Program-made: the position numbers and the translations under genes
Shown: one piece after another, positions 2,214-47,272 of the stretch
Numbering within the stretch: position 1 is the first letter of the stretch
Layout: every line of letters starts with the position of its first letter
Source: Candidatus Omnitrophota bacterium
Lineage (GTDB): Bacteria > Omnitrophota > Gorgyraeia > Gygaellales > Profunditerraquicolaceae
Assembly (NCBI GenBank): GCA_018897555.1
Contig: JAHIKK010000023.1
Span: forward strand, 1-57,030
Reading direction: 5' to 3'
Length of the DNA: 57,030 nt
Notes under the pieces: generated by a model
What the model was told of the DNA's origin: nothing
Seen by the model: the letters and a program-made list of their open reading frames with translations, nothing else
Databases searched by the model: none

Positions 2214-2317
2214 GTGACCCTGACGGGATTTTCCCGCCAATACTTTAAGTCAGGGCGGGATCCCGCCTGCCTACTTATCCGCAGGACGGGAAAAAGCTCT
2301 TGTCCTGGACCAGGCTA
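2214..2317 (-). pseudogene. tRNA-Glu 3' remnant with 20 internal nt replaced by a double-hairpin element
   Basis: 2292-2317 is identical to 2360-2385 of the intact tRNA; 2215-2231 matches its 3' end with 2 differences (CAGGGTCA vs TGGGGTCA); 2232-2291 is the hairpin element. Confidence 0.85.
2232..2291. repeat. Double-hairpin element TCCCGCC-N15-GGCGGGA-TCCCGCC-N16-GGACGGGA
   Basis: Read directly; same architecture at 2441, 2556, 2897 and 47149. Confidence 0.9.
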
Positions 2318-2322
2318 ATTAT

Positions 2323-2397
2323 TGACCCCAACGGGATTTGAACCCGTGTCGAGAGCTTGAAAAGCTCTTGTCCTGGACCAGGCTAGACGATGGGGTC
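2323..2397 (-). tRNA. tRNA-Glu (TTC)
   Basis: GACCCCATCGTCTAGCCTGGTCCAGGACAAGAGCTTTTCAAGCTCTCGACACGGGTTCAAATCCCGTTGGGGTCA folds as a full cloverleaf; CCA not encoded. Confidence 0.95.
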
Positions 2398-2615
2398 GAT
2401 TTTATTTCTACTAATCTTTTAAAAACACTATGACCAGGCTTCCCGCCCGAACTTTAAACAAGGGCGGGATCCCGCCTCTCCTCTAATAATCTGGCGGGAA
2501 GACGATGGGGTCGATTTTATTTCTACTAATCTTTTAAAAACACTATGACCAGGCTTCCCGCCCGAACTTTAAACAAGGGCGGGATCCCGCCTCTCCTCTA
2601 ATAATCTGGCGGGAA
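2386..2615. repeat. Two identical 115-bp tandem units (tRNA-Glu 5' fragment with double-hairpin insert plus a copy of the nuclease gene 3' end); degenerate partial third copy at 2616-2662
   Basis: 2386-2500 equals 2501-2615 base for base. Confidence 0.93.
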
Positions 2616-2873
2616 GACGATGGGGTCGATCTTTATTTCTAACAATCTTTTAAAAACACTATTGCCTTTAAAACTTTTTAATTTATTTTCTCGTTTACGA
2701 GCTGTGGTCTTATCAGTAAACTGTTCTTGATAAACTACAATGTATGGGCCCTTGTTTTTTGTAGCGATAACGCGATTTTGGTTATGTTGTTTTAATCTTA
2801 TCGCAAGATTGCTAGTACTGCCAATGTAATGCTTGCCATTTTGGTTCTTTAAAACATACACATAATATAACAT
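2598..2873 (-). CDS. Small stand-alone GIY-YIG nuclease (UPF0213/YhbQ-like size)
   Basis: YYVYVL...HYIG motifs, R in LAIRLKQHN, E in ARKRENKLK; 91 aa. Confidence 0.9.
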   Translation of the reverse strand: MLYYVYVLKNQNGKHYIGSTSNLAIRLKQHNQNRVIATKNKGPYIVVYQEQFTDKTTARKRENKLKSFKGNSVFKRLLEIKIDPIVFPPDY

Positions 2874-2888
2874 AATCGCTATCTTACA

Positions 2889-2967
2889 ACCAGGCTTCCC
2901 GCCCTAGCTTTAATTCAAGGCGGGATCCCGCCCACACTAAAATACCCGGCGGGAAGACGACAGGGCC
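2889..2967 (-). pseudogene. tRNA-Glu 5' remnant (GGCCCTGTCGTCT / AGCCTGGT) interrupted by a 58-bp double-hairpin element at 2897-2954
   Basis: Removing 2897-2954 restores GGCCCTGTCGTCTAGCCTGGT; GGCCCTG pairs with CAGGGTC of the 2214-2317 remnant. Confidence 0.85.
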
Positions 2968-2974
2968 TAGAGTC

Positions 2975-5900
2975 TTATTCTTCCTCCTCCGCGATTACCG
3001 GAGCAACACAGGAAACTCGATCTTTATCCTGCAATTTAATTAAACGTACCCCTTGCGATGAACGCCCGGTTTCCCGGATATCTTTAATCGCACAGCGCAA
3101 AAATATGCCGTTTTGAGTAATGACCATCAGCTCATCTTTATCATTTACGGTTTTTAGATTTACTGCCTGGCCGTTTTTATCGGTAACCTTAATATTGATT
3201 ACCCCTTTACCGCCGCGGCTGGTGAGCCGGTATTCATCGATAGTCGTGCGCTTTGCAAAACCCAGCTCGGTTACGGTCAGAATAGTAGAAACTTTTTGCG
3301 GAACCACCATATCAATAACTTCATCTTTTTTGGCCAAAGATATTGCGCGCACCCCGCGCGCACCCCTGCCCATTTGGCGTACTTTTTCTTCAGTAAATCT
3401 TATCGCCTTACCTTGTCGGGTTCCAATAAGCAGCTCTTGTTTTCCATCAGTCATCTCTACGCCAATTAATGCATCATCCTTATCCAGAGTAATACCGATA
3501 ATTCCACCCTTGCGGGGATTACTGTAGGCATCCAGCCTGGTTTTTTTAATTTGCCCCATCTTAGTAACCATCACCAAATACTTATCCGCGGAAAATTCTT
3601 TTACCGGAATGGTTGAACTAACCTTGGCTGACTGCTCCATCTGCACCAGATTAACAATGGCTTTACCTTTAGATATGCGGCTGGCCTGAGGAATTTCATA
3701 AACTTTTAGCCAATGCACCTGCCCTTTATCCGTAAAAATAAGCAGGTAATCTTTAGTAGAGGCCACAAAAAGATGCTCGCTAAAATCTGCTTCTTTTAAT
3801 TCCGCCCCCATCGACCCGCTTCCTCCGCGCTTTTGTTTACGATAAGAACTTACCGGCAAACGTTTAATATAACCACCATGGCTGATAGTGACCACTACAT
3901 CCTCGTCGGCAATTAAATCTTCCACTTCCAGCTCTTCCGCTTCTCCCACGATATCCGTGCGGCGGGAATCCCCGTATTTTTTCATTAACTCCTGCAGCTC
4001 TTCCTTAATAATTGCTTCGATTTTTTTAAGTGAAGCTAAGATCGCCTGGCATAATTCAATCTTCTTGAGCAACTCCGCGTATTCGGCATCTAGTTTATCG
4101 CGCTCCAAAGCCGTAAGCCGCTGCAACTGCATTTCCAAAATAGCCTGCGACTGTAATTCGGAAAGTTCAAACTCCTTCATTAAATTTAGCTTGGCTGCTT
4201 CCACGCTTTTAGAAGTTTTAATGACCTGAATAATCCGGTCAATAAATTTAAGCGCAATTTTTAAGCCTTCCAAAATATGCGCGCGCTTCAAAGCTTTATC
4301 TAATTCAAACTGCGTGCGCCGGCGGATAACTACCCGGCGATGTTCGATAAAACAATCCAATACCTGCCGTAAATTCAAAACTTTTGGCCGGTTATCCACC
4401 AGAGCCAGCATAATAATCCCGAAAGTATTTTCTAATTGCGTGTGCTTAAAAAGCTGATTTAAAACAATCTGAGATTCAATGTCGCGCTTAAGCTCAACCA
4501 CAATACGCATACCTTCTTTATCGGATTCGTCGCGAATATCGGATATGCCTTCGATTTTTTTATCATCGACTAAACCGGCAATGGCCTCAATCAGCCCGGA
4601 CTTCTGCACCTGATAAGGAATCTCGGTAAAAATAATCAGGTCTTTCCCATTCTTCTGGTGCTCCACCGTAGCCTTAGCCCGCACCAAGAGCTTGCCCCGG
4701 CCGGTCAGATACGCATCCTTAATTCCGTTCTTACCGCAAATTAATCCACCGGTGGGAAAATCCGGCCCCTTGATATACCGCATCAGGTCTTTAATTTCTG
4801 CCTCGGGATGATCCAGCAAATACATAATTGCTTCACAAACTTCATTTAAATTATGCGGCGGGATATTGGTGGCCATGCCTACAGCAATACCGCTTGAACC
4901 ATTAACCAAAAGGTTAGGCAGAGTCGCCGGTAAAAGCAACGGCTCTTTTAAAGAAGAATCAAAGTTCGGCCCAAAGTTTACGGTTTCTTTTTCAATATCA
5001 CCTAACATTTCATCACTCACCGCGGCCAGACGAGCCTCGGTATAACGCATGGCTGCGGCGGCGTCACCATCGACGGAATTATGAACAAAAATTCCGCTAG
5101 CTAAAGCGAAATTATGCGTGCCATCAATACTCAAGTCATATACATCTTCTTGTTGGTTTAAAATTTCAACCTTTAGGACTTTATGGTTATAACTTAACTC
5201 TTTATACAGCAAGTCTTCCTGCTTATTATAATATTTTACAAATCCCGTATTCCAGGAAGTTGCTGATCCATAAGGATACGCCTCTTTTCGCGTGCTCTCA
5301 TATAATTCTTCATTTAAATGATGATAATTACTTAAAGTTTCATGGCAAATCTTAACAAACTTTATTTTACCGGTATTATTAGTAATCCTGTTTTTATTAG
5401 CTTTGATTATTTTTTCATTAAAAAGCCTTCTATACTGCGGATCCTGCCATAATCTTTTTAGGGTTCTTGTCGCTCTCTGGCTAAACTCTATTCTTTTTTC
5501 CGGATGATTTTTTATATACTCTTTATTAGTATCACTTAAAAACTGGCGCATTTTCTCCCGATAAAGAGGATCCTGCCAATTCCGGACATTTCTAGCTGAA
5601 AGCCTTGCTGAATATTTTGCTTTATTTTCGGCATTACTCCAAAATTTATCTCTACCTTCTGCTATTTTTTCCCTATATTCTTGGTTTTGGTGCAAAAGTG
5701 AGGCATTTTCATAATGTACCCGCCAATGTTCTCTCCACTCCATTCTTTTAATATTATCCGGATGATTATTAAGCTTATTAAAGTCGATATGGTGCCTTAC
5801 TCTTCCGTCAGATTTTGAATATTTTCCTCGGGTTAAATTATAATTATCGGCCAAATGATGAGCCGGAACCCATTCATTTTTTGCGTTTTGATAAATTAAA

Positions 5901-6580
5901 CAGTACCCATCCCTGTTTAACCTGCCGGTTTTTTCTGATAATTTTTCATACAATGGCATCAAAGATTCACCCGTAGTTAAATCTTTGGCCTCTTTGTAAG
6001 CACCATCTCTTAACATAAACCTGTGATTGGGAGTACATCTAATTTCCGCTCCATTATCCAAAATAACTTTTATAATCTCGGCGTTTCTTGTTGTTAATCT
6101 TGGATTTTTAATCTCCGCGATTGAAATCAGCCCAGAATGATTTATGGTATAAGTATAATTTACCCTTCCTTGCCCTGCCTCTTTTATTAAATCTCCAAAA
6201 TCAAGGTTTCTTCCATCTACAAGCTTAACTTTTGTATCCTTGGTGAAACAACCAAAATTCCCCTGCCCGTCAACTAAGGGGTAGCGCAAAGAAAAATCCT
6301 GCGCCATTCTTACCAGAGTATCATAAATAGCAACATCACCATGGGGGTGATATTTACCCATGGTTTCGCCGACGATGCGGGCGCATTTTTTATAGGGCTT
6401 GGAATGTTCCAGGTTAAGTTCCCGCATGGCGTAAAGAATCCGCCGGTGCACGGGCTTTAAGCCATCGCGAACATCCGGCAGGGCCCGGCCGACAATTACG
6501 CTCATGGCGTAATTTAGATAGGAATCCTTAACTTCATCCTCGATATAAACCTGAATTATTTTTTCGTTACGTGTATACAT
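2975..6580 (-). CDS. gyrA: DNA gyrase subunit A precursor containing an intein (mature about 810 aa)
   Basis: [29 protein letters not shown], GyrA box QKRGGSG, C-terminal propeller repeats. Confidence 0.98.
5078..6250 (-). mobile_element. GyrA intein, 391 aa, with HNH-type endonuclease region
   Basis: GNFG|CFTKDT start, block B CTPNHRF, end [13 protein letters not shown]|SVDG; [16 protein letters not shown] motif. Confidence 0.96.
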
Positions 6581-16835: not shown

Positions 16836-17701
16836 TGGAAAGAAAAGCTTTAGGTAAAGGTCTCGGCGCATTAATTCCCGAAATAGCAGTAGATAGTACA
16901 AACCGTAGAAAAGAGGAGATTATTTATGTCCAATCTGGACAAATAAAACCCAATCCTTTTCAGCCGCGTGAAGATTTTGATGAGCAAAGTATCGGAGAGC
17001 TAGCACAATCTATTAAAGAAAAAGGGGTTATTCAACCACTTTTGGTTAGGCGTCAAGGTGATAACTATGAATTAATTGCCGGGGAAAGAAGGCTTCGCGC
17101 AGCTAACATTCTGGGGCTCAAAGAGATACCAGTTATTGTGCGAGATGTAAGCGATCAGGATTCATTAGAACTAGCCTTAATTGAAAATGTCCAAAGAGAA
17201 GGATTAAATCCTATTGAAGAAGCGCATGCTTATCAACACCTGGTGGATAAGTTCCAGGTTACCCAGGAAAAGATAAGTGAGGTTTTAGGAAAATCCCGCG
17301 TTTCGATTACCAATACTTTGCGCCTGCTTAAGCTGCCGCATGAGATTCAAGGTGAAATGAAAAAAGGGCGCATTAGTTTTGCCCATGGCCGGGCTTTACT
17401 TGAAATCGAAGACGCCAATCATCAGCGCAGGCTTGCCCAAGACGTTATTTCCAAAGGGCTTTCGGTGCGCGAGTTAGAAAACTTGATTAAAAGTGTGCGG
17501 CCCAAATCGATAAAACGCAATATCAGCCAGGGGCAGCGTGAGCCGCTAGTGGCAATCTTAGAGGAGCAATTGCAGCATGCCTTAGCCACTAAGGTGCGGA
17601 TCAGCAAGAGAAAAAAACGCGGGCACATTAATATTGAATTTTATTCGCCCGAAGATCTGCAGCGCATAGTTAACGTTATTAAAGGGACACCCCGCGCTTA
17701 G
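16835..17701 (+). CDS. parB: ParB/Spo0J
   Basis: ALGKGLGAL, NPFQPR, GERRLRA, ENVQRE. Confidence 0.96.
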   Translation: MERKALGKGLGALIPEIAVDSTNRRKEEIIYVQSGQIKPNPFQPREDFDEQSIGELAQSIKEKGVIQPLLVRRQGDNYELIAGERRLRAANILGLKEIPVIVRDVSDQDSLELALIENVQREGLNPIEEAHAYQHLVDKFQVTQEKISEVLGKSRVSITNTLRLLKLPHEIQGEMKKGRISFAHGRALLEIEDANHQRRLAQDVISKGLSVRELENLIKSVRPKSIKRNISQGQREPLVAILEEQLQHALATKVRISKRKKRGHINIEFYSPEDLQRIVNVIKGTPRA

Positions 17702-17778
17702 CAGAATTGTGCGGGTGTTATCTAAGTAAGCAAGGGACACCCCGCGCTAATTGGTATTGCGCGGGTGTTATCTAAGTA
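17682..17778. repeat. Two tandem 47-bp hairpin units (period 50) with different loops
   Basis: AAGGGACACCCCGCGCT-N11-GCGGGTGTTATCTAAGTA at 17682 and 17732. Confidence 0.85.
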
Positions 17779-34104: not shown

Positions 34105-34266
34105 ATATCCCTGCGGTGCGCGTTGGAAATTTGATAATTGTTGAACCAACACCATATTCACGGGAGCCCCATTATTCTTTATTGCACTTGTGCTTAAAGA
34201 TAGGGCACCCACCTGAAACCAAATCGGTTCAGACTATCAATCCAACGGCACTTTTGCGGGGATTTT
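34105..34266 (+). ncRNA. ssrS: 6S RNA
   Basis: Rod-like pairing ATCCCTGC/GCGGGGAT, GGTGC/GCACT, GTTGGA/TCCAAC, TTGATA/TATCAA; GGGAGCCC, GGGCACCCACCTG...GGTTCA and CAACGGCAC motifs as recalled from B. subtilis 6S-1; TTGATT-17-TATACT promoter at 34048-34076. Confidence 0.85.
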
Positions 34267-45164: not shown

Positions 45165-47030
45165 ATGTTTTTAGAAAAAATAAATTCACCTCTGGATTTA
45201 AAAAAATTAAGTTTAGAGCAGCTTAGTTGCCTTAGCGCGGAGATTCGCCAGAGGCTAATCGAGGTTGTTTCTCAGACCGGCGGGCATTTGGCTTCCAGCC
45301 TGGGGGCTGTCGAGTTAATCGTGGCTTTACATTATTGCCTGGATACACCCAAAGATAAAATTATTTTTGATGTGGGGCATCAGGCTTACGCGCATAAAAT
45401 ATTAACCGGACGCAACCGCAATTTTTCTACACTTAGGCAGTATCAGGGATTAAGCGGTTTTCCTTCAAAAGATGAGTCTGTTTATGATCCCTTTACTTCC
45501 GGCCACAGCTCGAGCGCTGTTTCTTTAGGTTTAGGGCTTGCCTGCGCCAGGGATTTTTTACCTAAAGCGGAGCAATTTAAGGTAGCTTGTGTGATTGGGG
45601 ATGGATCTTTAAGCGGCGGCCTTTGTTTTGAAGGCCTAAACAATACCGGACATTTGAAAAAAGACATTTTAGTGGTTTTAAACACCAATGAATTAAGTAT
45701 CGCTCCGAATGTGGGGGCGATTAGTAATTATTTGAATAAAATTATTTCTTTACCGGTGTATAACCGTTTTCATGATAATGTGGAGAATTTTTTAAAAACC
45801 CGTGTCCCGCGCGGCAGCCGCCTGATAAAACTTATGAATAAGTTTGAAGAAGGATTAAAGGGGCTATTTGTCCCGGGTATGTTGTTCGAAGAACTGGGAT
45901 TCCGCTATTTTGGCCCTATCGATGGGCACGATTTAAGCGCCTTAACTTCTACGCTAAAAAATATTCTGGAGATTAAAGGCCCCCGCCTTTTGCATATCGT
46001 GACCAAAAAAGGCAAGGGTTGCTTGTTTGCTGAAAAAGATCCGGTAAAGTTCCATGGGATCAGCCACTTCGATATCCATACGGGTGAAGTGGTGATTAAG
46101 AAATCTTCACCGGGAGCAAAAAGCTATACGGATATATTTCGTGATAAAATAGCGCAGTTGGCCCAAAGCGATAAGCGGATTGTGGCGATTACTGCCGCCA
46201 TGCCGGAGGGAACAGGTTTGGATAAATTCCGGGATTGTTTCCCGGAAAGATTTTTTGATTGCGGTATTGCCGAAGGCCACGCGGTTTGTTTTGCTGCCGG
46301 GCTGGCCAAACAGGGGTTTAAGCCGGTAGTAGCGATATATTCTACATTCCTGCAGCGCGCCTATGATCAGATTATTCAGGATGTTGCATTACAAGGGTTG
46401 CCGGTAATCTTTGCTATTGACCGGGCGGGAATTGTGGGGGAAGATGGAGTTACCCATCAAGGTATATTTGATATTGCTTATTTAAGGAGCATCCCGAATT
46501 TGGTCATCATGGCTCCCGGGGATGGCCGGGAACTGGAGCAGATGTTAGTGTTTGCTTTGCAGTTAGATAAGCCGGTAGCTATAAGATACCCTCGCGCAGA
46601 GGTTTCTTTGGAGGTGGATCTTGCGCCCCCTTTGAAATTAGGGCAGGGGCAACTAATTACAGAGGGCAAGGATTTCATAGTCATTGCTTTAGGCAGCATG
46701 GTTGGCGAGGCCAAGAAAGCCCTGGAGATATTAAATCAGGAAGGGTTATCCGGTAGTTTAATTAATGCCCGGTTTGTTGCGCCGCTGGATATGGAATTAA
46801 TTAAAAGAGTTTGCGGGGCGAGGAAATTTATTTTTACCATTGAAGAAGGGATAAGGGATGCGGGTTTTGGCAGTGCTGTTGCCGGGCAGTTAAATAAGCC
46901 GGTGGAACGTCTCGGCCTGCCATTTGAATTTATCCCGCATGGCGCCAGAGGGTTGCTTTTGGAAAAATATAAGCTCACCTCTAGCGGGATTGCCGCGCAT
47001 ATTCGCCAGGTGATAAAAAATAATGGCTAA
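45165..47030 (+). CDS. dxs: 1-deoxy-D-xylulose-5-phosphate synthase
   Basis: GGHLASSLG, DVGHQ, GHSSS, IGDGS, GIAEGHA, AYDQ, DRAG. Confidence 0.97.
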   Translation: MFLEKINSPLDLKKLSLEQLSCLSAEIRQRLIEVVSQTGGHLASSLGAVELIVALHYCLDTPKDKIIFDVGHQAYAHKILTGRNRNFSTLRQYQGLSGFPSKDESVYDPFTSGHSSSAVSLGLGLACARDFLPKAEQFKVACVIGDGSLSGGLCFEGLNNTGHLKKDILVVLNTNELSIAPNVGAISNYLNKIISLPVYNRFHDNVENFLKTRVPRGSRLIKLMNKFEEGLKGLFVPGMLFEELGFRYFGPIDGHDLSALTSTLKNILEIKGPRLLHIVTKKGKGCLFAEKDPVKFHGISHFDIHTGEVVIKKSSPGAKSYTDIFRDKIAQLAQSDKRIVAITAAMPEGTGLDKFRDCFPERFFDCGIAEGHAVCFAAGLAKQGFKPVVAIYSTFLQRAYDQIIQDVALQGLPVIFAIDRAGIVGEDGVTHQGIFDIAYLRSIPNLVIMAPGDGRELEQMLVFALQLDKPVAIRYPRAEVSLEVDLAPPLKLGQGQLITEGKDFIVIALGSMVGEAKKALEILNQEGLSGSLINARFVAPLDMELIKRVCGARKFIFTIEEGIRDAGFGSAVAGQLNKPVERLGLPFEFIPHGARGLLLEKYKLTSSGIAAHIRQVIKNNG

Positions 47031-47271
47031 AATTATAATTAATCAGGATAGATGTAAGGGGTGTTTTTTATGCGTAAATTTTTGTCCCAAGGGTTTGATT
47101 AAGAAAAGCGTAAAATTAAATAAACAGGGTTTGAATTTTGCGGAGTTTTCCCGCCGAGGTAACTTAAATAAGGGCGGGATCCCGCCAAAAGCGGGAGATT
47201 TAACAGATTGTATCGGCTGTATGCAGTGTGTGGTAATTTGTCCGGATTGCTGTATTGAGGTAGATAAATAA
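47023..47271 (+). CDS. 2x[4Fe-4S] ferredoxin (delta subunit of 2-oxoacid oxidoreductase) with a 16-aa repeat-derived insert
   Basis: CKGCFLCVNFCP and CIGCMQCVVICP. Confidence 0.92.
   Translation: MAKIIINQDRCKGCFLCVNFCPKGLIKKSVKLNKQGLNFAEFSRRGNLNKGGIPPKAGDLTDCIGCMQCVVICPDCCIEVDK
47149..47196. repeat. In-frame 48-bp TCCCGCC/GGCGGGA double-hairpin element
   Basis: TCCCGCC-N17-GGCGGGATCCCGCC-AAAA-GCGGGA encodes SRRGNLNKGGIPPKAG. Confidence 0.85.
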
Positions 47272-47272
47272 A

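Follow-up and report, generated by a model that had tools for sequence, protein, structure and literature searches.

A probable homing-type GIY-YIG cassette that interrupts and replaces tRNA-Glu genes in Candidatus Omnitrophota

Architecture of an interrupted tRNA-Glu locus

The stretch of DNA analyzed here, hereafter called the window (WIN, where it is set beside related loci, which carry labels of the form L001), comprises 57 kb from a groundwater bacterium of the phylum Candidatus Omnitrophota. Between gyrA (2975-6580) and glmS (357-2195) lie, all on the minus strand and in order from gyrA towards glmS, an orphan 5' piece of a tRNA-Glu gene, a short open reading frame (ORF) for a GIY-YIG nuclease, two copies of a 115-nucleotide (nt) repeat, an intact tRNA-Glu(UUC), the spacer ATAATT and a 3' relic of a tRNA-Glu gene (Table 1). 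An earlier note, made from the letters of the window, had reported two tRNA-Glu halves with complementary acceptor ends, a GIY-YIG ORF of 91 amino acids (aa) and an intact tRNA with a different acceptor stem, and all of these are present. It had not reported the hairpin doublets in both relics, the two further tRNA 5' pieces, the origin of the ORF tail in a repeat copy, or a stray hairpin in a distant ferredoxin gene. The full cassette consists, in order, of an orphan tRNA-Glu 5' fragment broken by hairpins, a GIY-YIG ORF of 80-90 aa and a complete tRNA-Glu.

The acceptor strands of the two outer tRNA pieces, GGCCCTG and CAGGGTC, pair at seven of seven positions with one G-U pair, and neither pairs with the GACCCCA/TGGGGTC stem of the intact tRNA. 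In a repeat analysis, the first 26 nt of the 3' relic are identical to the intact tRNA, and a hairpin doublet then stands in place of about 21 nt of tRNA, from the 3' strand of the anticodon stem to the T-loop. The doublets at both relics are approximately 58-60 nt long. Because a scan with 11-mers reveals no further tRNA-Glu-like fragment in the 57-kb window, we do not regard the split pieces as a product of chance. There is also no second GIY-YIG gene in the 57 kb.

The earlier note took the arrangement to be an insert of roughly 570 bp in tRNA-Glu. Insertion into this gene is borne out, but a simple single insert is not, since the window holds one full and two ORF-less tandem copies of the cassette. 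Each 115-nt unit is composed of about 34 nt homologous to the 3' end of the ORF, followed by GACCCCATCGTCT, a hairpin doublet and AGCCTGGTC, and the final five codons of the window ORF (..FPPDY) together with its stop codon come from the hairpin of the first following repeat copy. In two metagenomes (runs X1 and X4), the word depth of the repeat (window 2385-2529) is about 4-5 times that of its flanks, and therefore the true copy number may exceed the assembled 2.4 or may differ between members of the population. Metagenome contigs are interrupted at the repeat, and for this region only the word depth is informative. The samples also contain further Omnitrophota strains, which have other alleles at this locus.

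An element lacking both an integrase and an intron had been proposed, and neither was found. Between gyrA and glmS, no ORF other than the GIY-YIG gene has a domain match, no integrase or recombinase occurs in any of the 125 loci described below, and the whole insert measures 0.4-0.75 kb across loci. A scan of the window with Rfam gathering thresholds detects only tRNAs and a 6S RNA, with no intron at the locus, and the intact tRNA is uninterrupted. Promoter and terminator scans of the locus give nothing above shuffled background that suits the start of the ORF.

Table 1. Features of the interrupted tRNA-Glu locus and of the stray hairpin in the window.
Feature	Position	Strand	Evidence or remark
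Orphan 5' end of the presumably displaced resident tRNA-Glu, tRNA positions 1-13, GGCCCTGTCGTCT	2967-2955	-	sequence
Hairpin doublet, 58 nt, two 29-nt units TCCCGCC-loop-GGCGGGA, between T13 and A14 of the orphan piece	2954-2897	-	
AGCCTGGT, D-loop positions 14-21 of the orphan piece, trimmed relic	2896-2889	-	
GIY-YIG ORF, 91 aa, UPF0213/SLX1-like nuclease domain only	2873-2598	-	Pfam PF01541 E=1.7e-15
Perfect 115-nt tandem repeat, 2.4 copies, ORF-less mini copies of the cassette	2385-2662	-	
GACCCCATCGTCT (tRNA 1-13) within the tandem repeat	2627-2615 and 2512-2500	-	
Hairpin doublets within the tandem repeat	2614-2556 and 2499-2441	-	
Intact tRNA-Glu(UUC), acceptor GACCCCA/TGGGGTC	2397-2323	-	ARAGORN; Rfam tRNA 62.8 bits
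3' relic of the presumed resident tRNA-Glu	2317-2215	-	reads (T)AGCCTGGTCCAGGACAAGAGCTTTT ... AAATCCCGTCAGGGTCA
3' relic, T13/A14 to anticodon loop	2317-2292	-	
3' relic, hairpin doublet	2291-2232	-	
3' relic, AAATCCCGTCAGGGTCA	2231-2215	-	
Stray hairpin element, fifth in the window, 48 nt, in frame in ferredoxin ORF	47149-47196	+	

Empty and occupied alleles among relatives

A search of genomes with the nuclease alignment returned four loci, which point to the phylum Candidatus Omnitrophota, and the contigs of the closest nuclease homologues share the neighbourhood gyrB-gyrA-cassette-glmS. We then drew a larger sample by scanning public metagenomes with a 39-nt tRNA-body pattern, which yielded 120 loci, almost all of them syntenic (gyrA, tRNA-Glu, glmS); with the loci found earlier and the window, the sample totals 125. 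Of these, 79 are empty, defined as a gyrA stop codon no more than 40 nt from a single tRNA-Glu and no GIY-YIG gene, 26 carry a GIY-YIG gene whose product is 38-79% identical to that of the window, 12 have other spacer content, and 8 are cut by a contig end. The 12 others include L021, which has a single mini copy without the ORF and shares the deletion junction of the window repeat, and the decayed relics L044 and L093.

Occupied loci share one plan. In L002, L003, L006, L007 and L008, it runs from tRNA positions 1-13 through a hairpin doublet and AGCCTGGTC.. (up to 18 nt) to the ORF and an intact tRNA-Glu that contains the ORF stop codon. The tRNA 5' end is duplicated in all occupied loci, and a hairpin-disrupted orphan 5' piece lies beside the ORF in 26 of 26, including those that have no 3' piece. 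Because the orphan piece and its hairpins recur in this manner, we consider them a part of the cassette and not an accident of the window. Two further ideas fail on the same comparison. First, AGCCTGGT might be read as an 8-bp target duplication, and this is ruled out by relatives whose relics are longer (9-18 nt), the longest being the 18 nt of L002 and L007 (AGCCTGGTCTAGGACAAG). Second, the different acceptor stem of the intact tRNA might be taken as a source of immunity, and this is not supported, because orphan piece and intact tRNA share the same stem in most occupied loci.

When hosts are clustered by the flanking gyrA and glmS protein segments, empty loci are the nearest neighbours of occupied ones. 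The closest relatives of the window, L107 (94%), L031 (93%) and L017 (92%), are all empty, and the occupied locus L020 differs from the empty locus L083, whose host is 95% alike, by a clean insertion of about 395 nt bounded by a 12-nt repeat, GACCCTGTCGTC. Thus, the locus displays presence/absence polymorphism at one homologous site among close relatives, as is characteristic of free-standing homing genes. An empty allele with a single tRNA-Glu of the relic type had been anticipated, and it is common among close relatives. The types present in the empty loci are GACCCTG/CAGGGTC (36 loci), GTCCCCA/TGGGGAC (21), GACCCCA/TGGGGTC (12) and GACCCCG/CGGGGTC (6). The decay of two complete tandem tRNA-Glu genes had been named as a finding that would speak against an insertion; two complete genes occur in no locus of the 125, and the pattern matches once per locus in the 120 scanned.

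The spacer between gyrA and tRNA-Glu holds other material as well. In L011, L034, L073 and L080, the place of the cassette is taken by another kind of insert, which is structured, GC-rich, non-coding and 150-300 nt long, and L040 and L062 carry an unrelated ORF of about 0.5 kb in this spacer.

The tRNA type changes with the cassette

The host cluster that includes the window comprises 11 loci within 10% amino-acid distance. Within this cluster, the intact tRNA is of the GACCCCA type in three of three loci with a cassette or mini relic (WIN, L003 and L021) and in none of the eight others, which have GACCCTG, GACCCCG or GACCCTA (Fisher p=0.006). The proposal that the element brings a substitute tRNA is therefore well matched here, and the linkage corresponds to the co-conversion of flanking markers that characterizes homing genes. 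The relics, in turn, resemble what the neighbours still possess: those of the window differ at one base from the native tRNA of the non-cassette loci in the cluster (GGCCCTGTCGTCT versus GACCCTGTCGTCT in L016, L017, L031 and L034).

The same pattern is found elsewhere in the sample. The relics of L007 (GACCCCG/CGGGGTC) match each other and the type of L107, whereas the type of its intact tRNA is different; in the L038/L050/L092 group, the relic ends again match each other and the native type, with an intact tRNA of another type. The 3' relics of these loci resemble that of the window, with a doublet in the T-loop of L007 and a small hairpin replacing the anticodon arm in the L038/L050/L092 group. 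Overall, 3' relics are present in 12 of 26 occupied loci versus 5 of 76 empty ones (p=2e-5), and eight of the 12 in occupied loci differ in type from the intact tRNA.

The relatedness of the nucleases is, as judged from pairwise identities and not from trees, largely uncoupled from that of their hosts (Spearman 0.21 over 279 pairs), as is also characteristic of homing genes. Hosts at least 85% alike can carry nucleases that are 41-60% alike, and L007 and L053 have nucleases 90% alike in hosts whose genes are 79% alike. Some loci hold more than one remnant: L116 has two 3' relics, and L055 has two cassettes in series, one of them decayed. In L008, the start of the GIY-YIG ORF is disrupted, and the open frame lacks the first 13 or so residues. 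Together, these patterns appear to show that different cassette lineages entered the same site repeatedly and carried the tRNA along, and L008, L055, L044, L093 and L021 look like the stages of decay and loss that would be expected of a homing-type gene.

A minimal nuclease whose family reads into tRNA genes

The predicted protein matches PF01541 with 57.5 bits against a cut-off of 22.6, and no other domain is matched. The tyrosines of the GIY and YIG motifs (Y..Y.G) and the Arg, His and Glu residues are kept without exception, or nearly so, across 24 distinct Omnitrophota ORFs, and since the catalytic residues are kept, the enzyme is probably active. Its sequence matches PDB entries 1zg2 (BH0048, E=7.6e-13) and 1ywl (EF2693, E=2.7e-10) and the protein SLX1 (E=1e-5), and the top Foldseek matches to its predicted fold are 1zg2, SLX1 (probability 1.0) and 1ywl. 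The structure model has a predicted local distance difference test score (pLDDT) of 79 and a disordered tail (residues 83-91). With a single domain in 86-91 aa, the protein is minimal and belongs with the UPF0213/SLX1-like group; no DNA-binding or other second domain is evident in these 86-91 aa. The nearest library model for intron-type GIY-YIG endonucleases, TIGR01453 (NCBIfam grpIintron_endo), reaches 23.8 bits against a cut-off of 56, and the protein therefore falls outside that type. Defence and phage libraries give marginal matches only, in PADLOC at E of about 1e-3 and, over 31 residues, to a PHROGs 'homing endonuclease' family (E=2.6e-5).

The stop codon of the ORF normally lies inside the D-arm of the following tRNA. 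The closest homologues end in ..DPIV, encoded by GAC CCC ATC GTC TAG, which is the first 15 nt of the tRNA. The wider family comprises 23,569 clusters at E<=1e-3 in a profile search. Among the 149 top representatives, the C-terminal peptide is encoded by a tRNA 5' end in 41, compared with a mean of 4.9 and a maximum of 12 for shuffled tails. Examples include ..GPIV, ..PSSSLV, ..ERWPSG (tRNA-Ser-like) and ..VEQSGSSSGS (initiator-tRNA-like), and many N-terminal extensions in the family translate tRNA sequence too. This observation, which derives from protein tails and not from DNA, suggests that residence at tRNA genes is a habit of the family. Peptides derived from hairpins are weakly enriched among family members (8 versus 1.2), and we do not use them as evidence.

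The placement of the stop codon inside a tRNA would have a further consequence. Maturation of the tRNA by RNase P should cut the message before the stop codon, and such a cut would constitute a built-in brake on expression of the nuclease.

Cassettes of similar plan occur at other tRNA genes. The tRNA-Lys cassettes of L004, L131 and L132, from other lineages, encode nucleases about 40-45% identical to that of the window. Each begins with a tRNA 5' piece, which is followed by a 17-nt hairpin (for example TCCCGATTAAATCGGGA) and the remainder of the D-arm; next comes the ORF, and last an intact tRNA-Lys with the stop codon. In Candidatus Yanofskybacteria (L010, 2420-2940), a GIY-YIG gene whose product is 42% identical has both the palindrome ATCGAGGATCCTCGAT and tRNA 5' fragments on each of its two sides, with a partial tRNA and then an intact tRNA-Ala downstream; this layout is unlike that of the Omnitrophota cassette.

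Paired hairpins linked to the cassette

The insert in the D-arm, at positions 12/13 or 13/14, exists in 19 distinct sequences, every one of which forms two hairpins. Stem variants include TCCCGCC/GGCGGGA, TCCCGTTTCC/GGAAACGGGA, TCCCGAT/ATCGGGA and CCCCGCA/TGCGGGG. Because the stems differ and yet stay complementary, pairing appears to be under selection, and the loops drift. The doublets are tied to the cassette: they are present in 22 of 26 occupied loci versus 1 of 79 empty ones, and 38 of the 39 doublets in 980 kb fall in the tRNA-Glu locus, which rules out ordinary dispersed repeats. Terminators are ruled out as well, since no T-run follows the hairpins.

The position of the doublet tracks the clade of the nuclease. 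It is 12/13 or 13/14 in the clade of the window and 35/36, inside the anticodon, in a second clade, and the third clade has a small hairpin where the entire anticodon arm would be. In 3' relics, hairpins are located in the T-loop at 56/57, and hairpins can also be nested inside each other, as in L092. The termini TCCCG..CGGGA are common to tRNA-Glu and tRNA-Lys cassettes. Short duplications of 3-4 nt (TCA, TAGA, TCAG) lie on either side of the 17-nt hairpins in L004 and L132, and no clear target duplication is seen at the Omnitrophota doublets.

Two hairpins have strayed into protein-coding genes. In the window, a copy is located between the two cluster motifs of a korD/porD-like 2x[4Fe-4S] ferredoxin (ORF 47026-47272, plus strand), whose protein exceeds the OGOR_delta profile by about 15 residues across the matched region. 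In L070 (8212-8271), a 60-nt doublet together with an adjacent short GC-rich palindrome constitutes an in-frame insertion of 25 residues in a conserved gene about 3.4 kb from tRNA-Glu. The L070 insertion is absent from at least 11 orthologues in other loci and is therefore a hairpin insertion polymorphism.

A two-hairpin module, composed of a TCCC..GGGA hairpin followed by TTAATTCGCGCAnATAACTTACG..CGTAAGTTATGCGCTCATTAAA, recurs in the spacer between tRNA-Glu and glmS (L017, L020, L083, L093, L099, L113, L122 and others). The module directly precedes the glmS ATG, apparently between the ribosome-binding site AAGGTG and the start codon, and in L016, L017 and L043 it lies inside a T-loop relic.

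A homing-type cassette that carries its own tRNA

We consider it probable that a free-standing, homing-type selfish cassette occupies the tRNA-Glu(UUC) gene between gyrA and glmS and co-converts the tRNA. The data show how the locus is built, that some alleles are empty and others occupied, that tRNA type, relics and hairpins go with the cassette, and that nuclease relatedness does not match host relatedness. Cleavage, the position of the cut, the way in which it is repaired and the function of the hairpins are what we infer from these observations. The core idea of the earlier note, a tRNA-replacing element with a GIY-YIG homing nuclease, holds and is partly supported.

In the window, a cassette with a GACCCCA-type tRNA would have entered a genome whose tRNA-Glu was of the GACCCTG/CAGGGTC type, with the break at C12/T13/A14 of the D-arm. 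The two ends of the resident gene would have stayed behind as dead relics, and the imported tRNA would have taken over. Breakpoints cluster near the D-arm: 3' relics start at T13/A14 in the window and the L050 group and at T11-A14 in L082, and hairpins of the window's clade occupy 12/13 or 13/14. These positions lead us to propose the D-arm as the cut site. A staggered cut around C12-T13 would suit known GIY-YIG homing enzymes.

The proposed series of events begins with the nuclease cutting a cassette-free tRNA-Glu gene in the D-arm, after which the break would be repaired by copying from incoming DNA that bears the cassette. The left end would pair with the orphan piece and the right end with the tRNA body, and the ORF would be copied in along with a new 5' segment or a whole tRNA. 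With the orphan 5' piece and the tRNA body serving as homology arms, the tRNA would be co-converted with the ORF. If copying instead continued past the donor tRNA and was completed by end joining without homology, a 3' relic of the recipient would remain, as in the window. Hairpins at the break site would destroy the second target, in the orphan piece, and would reduce the length of the direct repeat through which the ORF might otherwise be lost. The 115-nt copies could have arisen by repeated insertion into the regenerated site or by nuclease-driven tandem amplification, as described for SegB (see below).

Several considerations weigh against this proposal. First, a bare nuclease domain of 86 aa that lacks a DNA-binding domain makes sequence-specific homing less than self-evident, and homing in a bacterial chromosome would require that donor DNA enter the cell. 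Second, the intact tRNA of the cassette retains the presumed target sequence, and the proposal does not account for how self-cutting is avoided. Third, a single cut in the D-arm is insufficient for all insertions, since hairpins are also found at 35/36 and at 56/57 of the T-loop. Fourth, some empty loci are not clean: L056 carries a true doublet, and three or four others (L016, L017, L043 and L046) have a T-loop relic in which a single TCCCG-type hairpin is accompanied by one of another type. Fifth, the 5' and 3' relics overlap by 24 to more than 40 nt (L030, L050), a pattern more readily explained by a Campbell-type or duplication event than by simple gap repair. Finally, the sample of loci was drawn with a pattern that demands an intact tRNA-Glu.

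Alternative explanations

Perhaps the hairpins themselves are the mobile agent. TCCCG..CGGGA miniature units, comparable to the palindromes of REP/REPIN elements or to the hairpin ends of IS200/IS605-type elements, would insert into tRNA loops, the GIY-YIG protein would be their structure-specific nuclease, and tRNA duplications and spare tRNAs would be the outcomes that hosts survive. The occurrence of the same termini in cassettes at tRNA-Glu in Omnitrophota and at tRNA-Lys in other lineages is consistent with this model, as are the short duplications in L004 and L132, the presence of hairpins in all three tRNA loops (12-14, 35/36 and 56/57) with nesting in L092, the two stray in-frame insertions (window and L070) and the close association of doublets with occupied loci. 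Moreover, the nearest solved relative of known function is SLX1, which cuts branched DNA. However, GIY-YIG enzymes hydrolyse DNA, and strand transfer is known for none of them. The insertion sites share no common sequence motif, the Omnitrophota doublets have no clear target duplication, and their loops diverge rapidly, as would passive sequence. Hairpin movement alone also leaves the joint arrival of a foreign tRNA type and an ORF unaccounted for, and we therefore judge it unlikely as the main explanation.

A second model dispenses with mobility. Here, tRNA-Glu would have been duplicated in tandem long ago around a domesticated GIY-YIG gene, the arrangement would have descended vertically, its extra copies would have decayed independently in each lineage, and empty loci would be deletions between direct repeats. 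Such deletions are easy, and L021, L044 and L093 could be their relics. This model also agrees with the conservation of the locus and of the overlap between ORF and tRNA across nucleases that are 38-100% alike, and the acceptor stem shared by orphan piece and intact tRNA in most occupied loci is what concerted evolution would produce. It does not agree with the near absence of coupling between nuclease and host relatedness, nor with the fact that tRNA type switches exactly with the cassette inside one tight host cluster. Likewise, the relic ends in the window, L007 and the L038 group pair with each other and not with the intact tRNA, and match the native type of empty neighbours, and no locus preserves the two complete tRNA-Glu genes from which decay would have started. 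Vertical descent consequently seems quite improbable to us.

We give hardly any weight to a third view, in which the locus would be what remains of a larger integrase-type island with its attachment site in tRNA-Glu, or a split or intron-bearing tRNA that is still joined at the RNA level, since, even though integrative elements often target and restore tRNA genes, split tRNA genes and 5' fragments left next to mobile elements are known from archaea (PMC3293823), and the relic ends pair with each other, the 125 gyrA-glmS intervals contain no integrase or recombinase, the insert is only 0.4-0.75 kb, the duplicated part of the tRNA is the 5' and not the usual 3' one, Rfam finds no group I or other intron at the locus, the window relic is missing about 21 nt of tRNA body, a hairpin can sit inside the anticodon in relatives, and a complete tRNA-Glu is always present.

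Relation to known systems

The system closest to the homing-type cassette that we favour is SegB, and the two work alike but are not members of the same protein family. SegB has a DNA-binding part. In T4-like phages, it is a free-standing GIY-YIG homing endonuclease encoded among tRNA genes (PMC2330249; PMC13096335), which cuts within tRNA genes, including at the T-loop motif RAWTSGAAC, and drives tandem segmental amplification of the neighbouring tRNA region (PMC13096335). As in the Omnitrophota cassette, the gene is intron-free and lies beside tRNA genes, and SegB spreads along with flanking tRNA sequence by break repair (PMC2330249; PMC13096335). Unlike the phage protein of about 220 aa, the Omnitrophota protein is a bare UPF0213/SLX1-like domain of 80-90 aa encoded on a bacterial chromosome. 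The SegB papers that we consulted describe no orphan tRNA piece, hairpin inserts, ORF stop inside a tRNA, or replacement of a host tRNA gene at the locus.

Integrase islands and archaeal elements, such as that at tRNA-Thr of Caldiarchaeum (PMC3293823), resemble the cassette in that they target a tRNA, keep its function by means of a carried copy and leave a fragment behind. The cassette differs from integrase islands (PMC3293823) in that it has no recombinase, is shorter than 1 kb, supplies the 5' part of the tRNA or the whole of it, and has hairpins in its relics.

For the protein, the best sequence and fold matches are the UPF0213 proteins 1zg2 (BH0048) and 1ywl (EF2693), whose structural-genomics PDB entries name no function. 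We found no published function for UPF0213 proteins, a group to which E. coli YhbQ belongs, and our literature search on UPF0213/YhbQ/COG2827 and on GIY-YIG genes beside tRNAs returned no link to tRNA genes and no description of such an arrangement. In eukaryotes, SLX1, whose nuclease domain resembles the window protein, partners with SLX4 to process branched DNA.

Small palindromic repeats that insert into genes are known from Rickettsia palindromic elements and from REP/REPIN sequences with their RAYT transposases. Like Rickettsia palindromic elements and REPINs, the hairpins described here are short, GC-rich and often paired, exhibit stem covariation, and are tolerated in frame in protein genes as well as in RNA genes. 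They are also linked, as REP/REPIN sequences are, to one nearby nuclease-like gene, but this gene encodes a GIY-YIG enzyme and not an HUH transposase, and in contrast to REP/REPIN units they are nearly confined to one locus (38 of 39 in 980 kb).

A more tentative suggestion is that UPF0213-type GIY-YIG genes and TCCCG..CGGGA hairpins could form a distinct class of bacterial mobile element, one that targets tRNA loops and spares its host by means of a spare tRNA or tRNA segment. Within this proposal, the hairpins may serve as the structured DNA substrate of the bare nuclease domain. If such a class exists, it would give a biological role to more than 20,000 protein clusters labelled 'unknown function'.

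Implications

Homing genes normally protect the host gene by residing in a self-splicing intron or an intein, or by using an intergenic site. The cassette appears to employ a third solution, suited to an RNA gene, in that it breaks the gene and supplies a replacement 5' segment or a whole tRNA. An essential tRNA gene at a conserved locus would thereby be overwritten repeatedly by foreign alleles, which would provide a direct route for the horizontal exchange of tRNA genes. For studies that use tRNA sequences or fragments as markers, cassette replacement would be a source of error.

The occurrence of the same cassette plan in many relatives may also hint at the role of a large uncharacterised nuclease family. 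It offers a testable hypothesis for UPF0213/YhbQ-like proteins, many of whose genes visibly read into tRNA genes. The hairpin doublets, tightly linked to the cassette, are its second component, and the role that we assign to them is offered as a proposal.

Other features of the window

The 6S RNA detected in the Rfam scan is encoded at 34105-34266 on the plus strand (RF00013, 67 bits). A 50-nt tandem repeat of 1.9 copies with 87% matches (17682-17778) contains a CCCGCGC..GCGCGGG hairpin whose sequence is unrelated to the hairpins of the tRNA locus. The gyrA gene beside the cassette (2975-6580, minus strand) encodes 1201 aa with an intein (PF14890). In L002 (712-4458), gyrA encodes 810 aa and has no intein, and gyrB has an intein instead. 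With inteins and the cassette in one small neighbourhood, several kinds of selfish insert therefore appear to have settled there.

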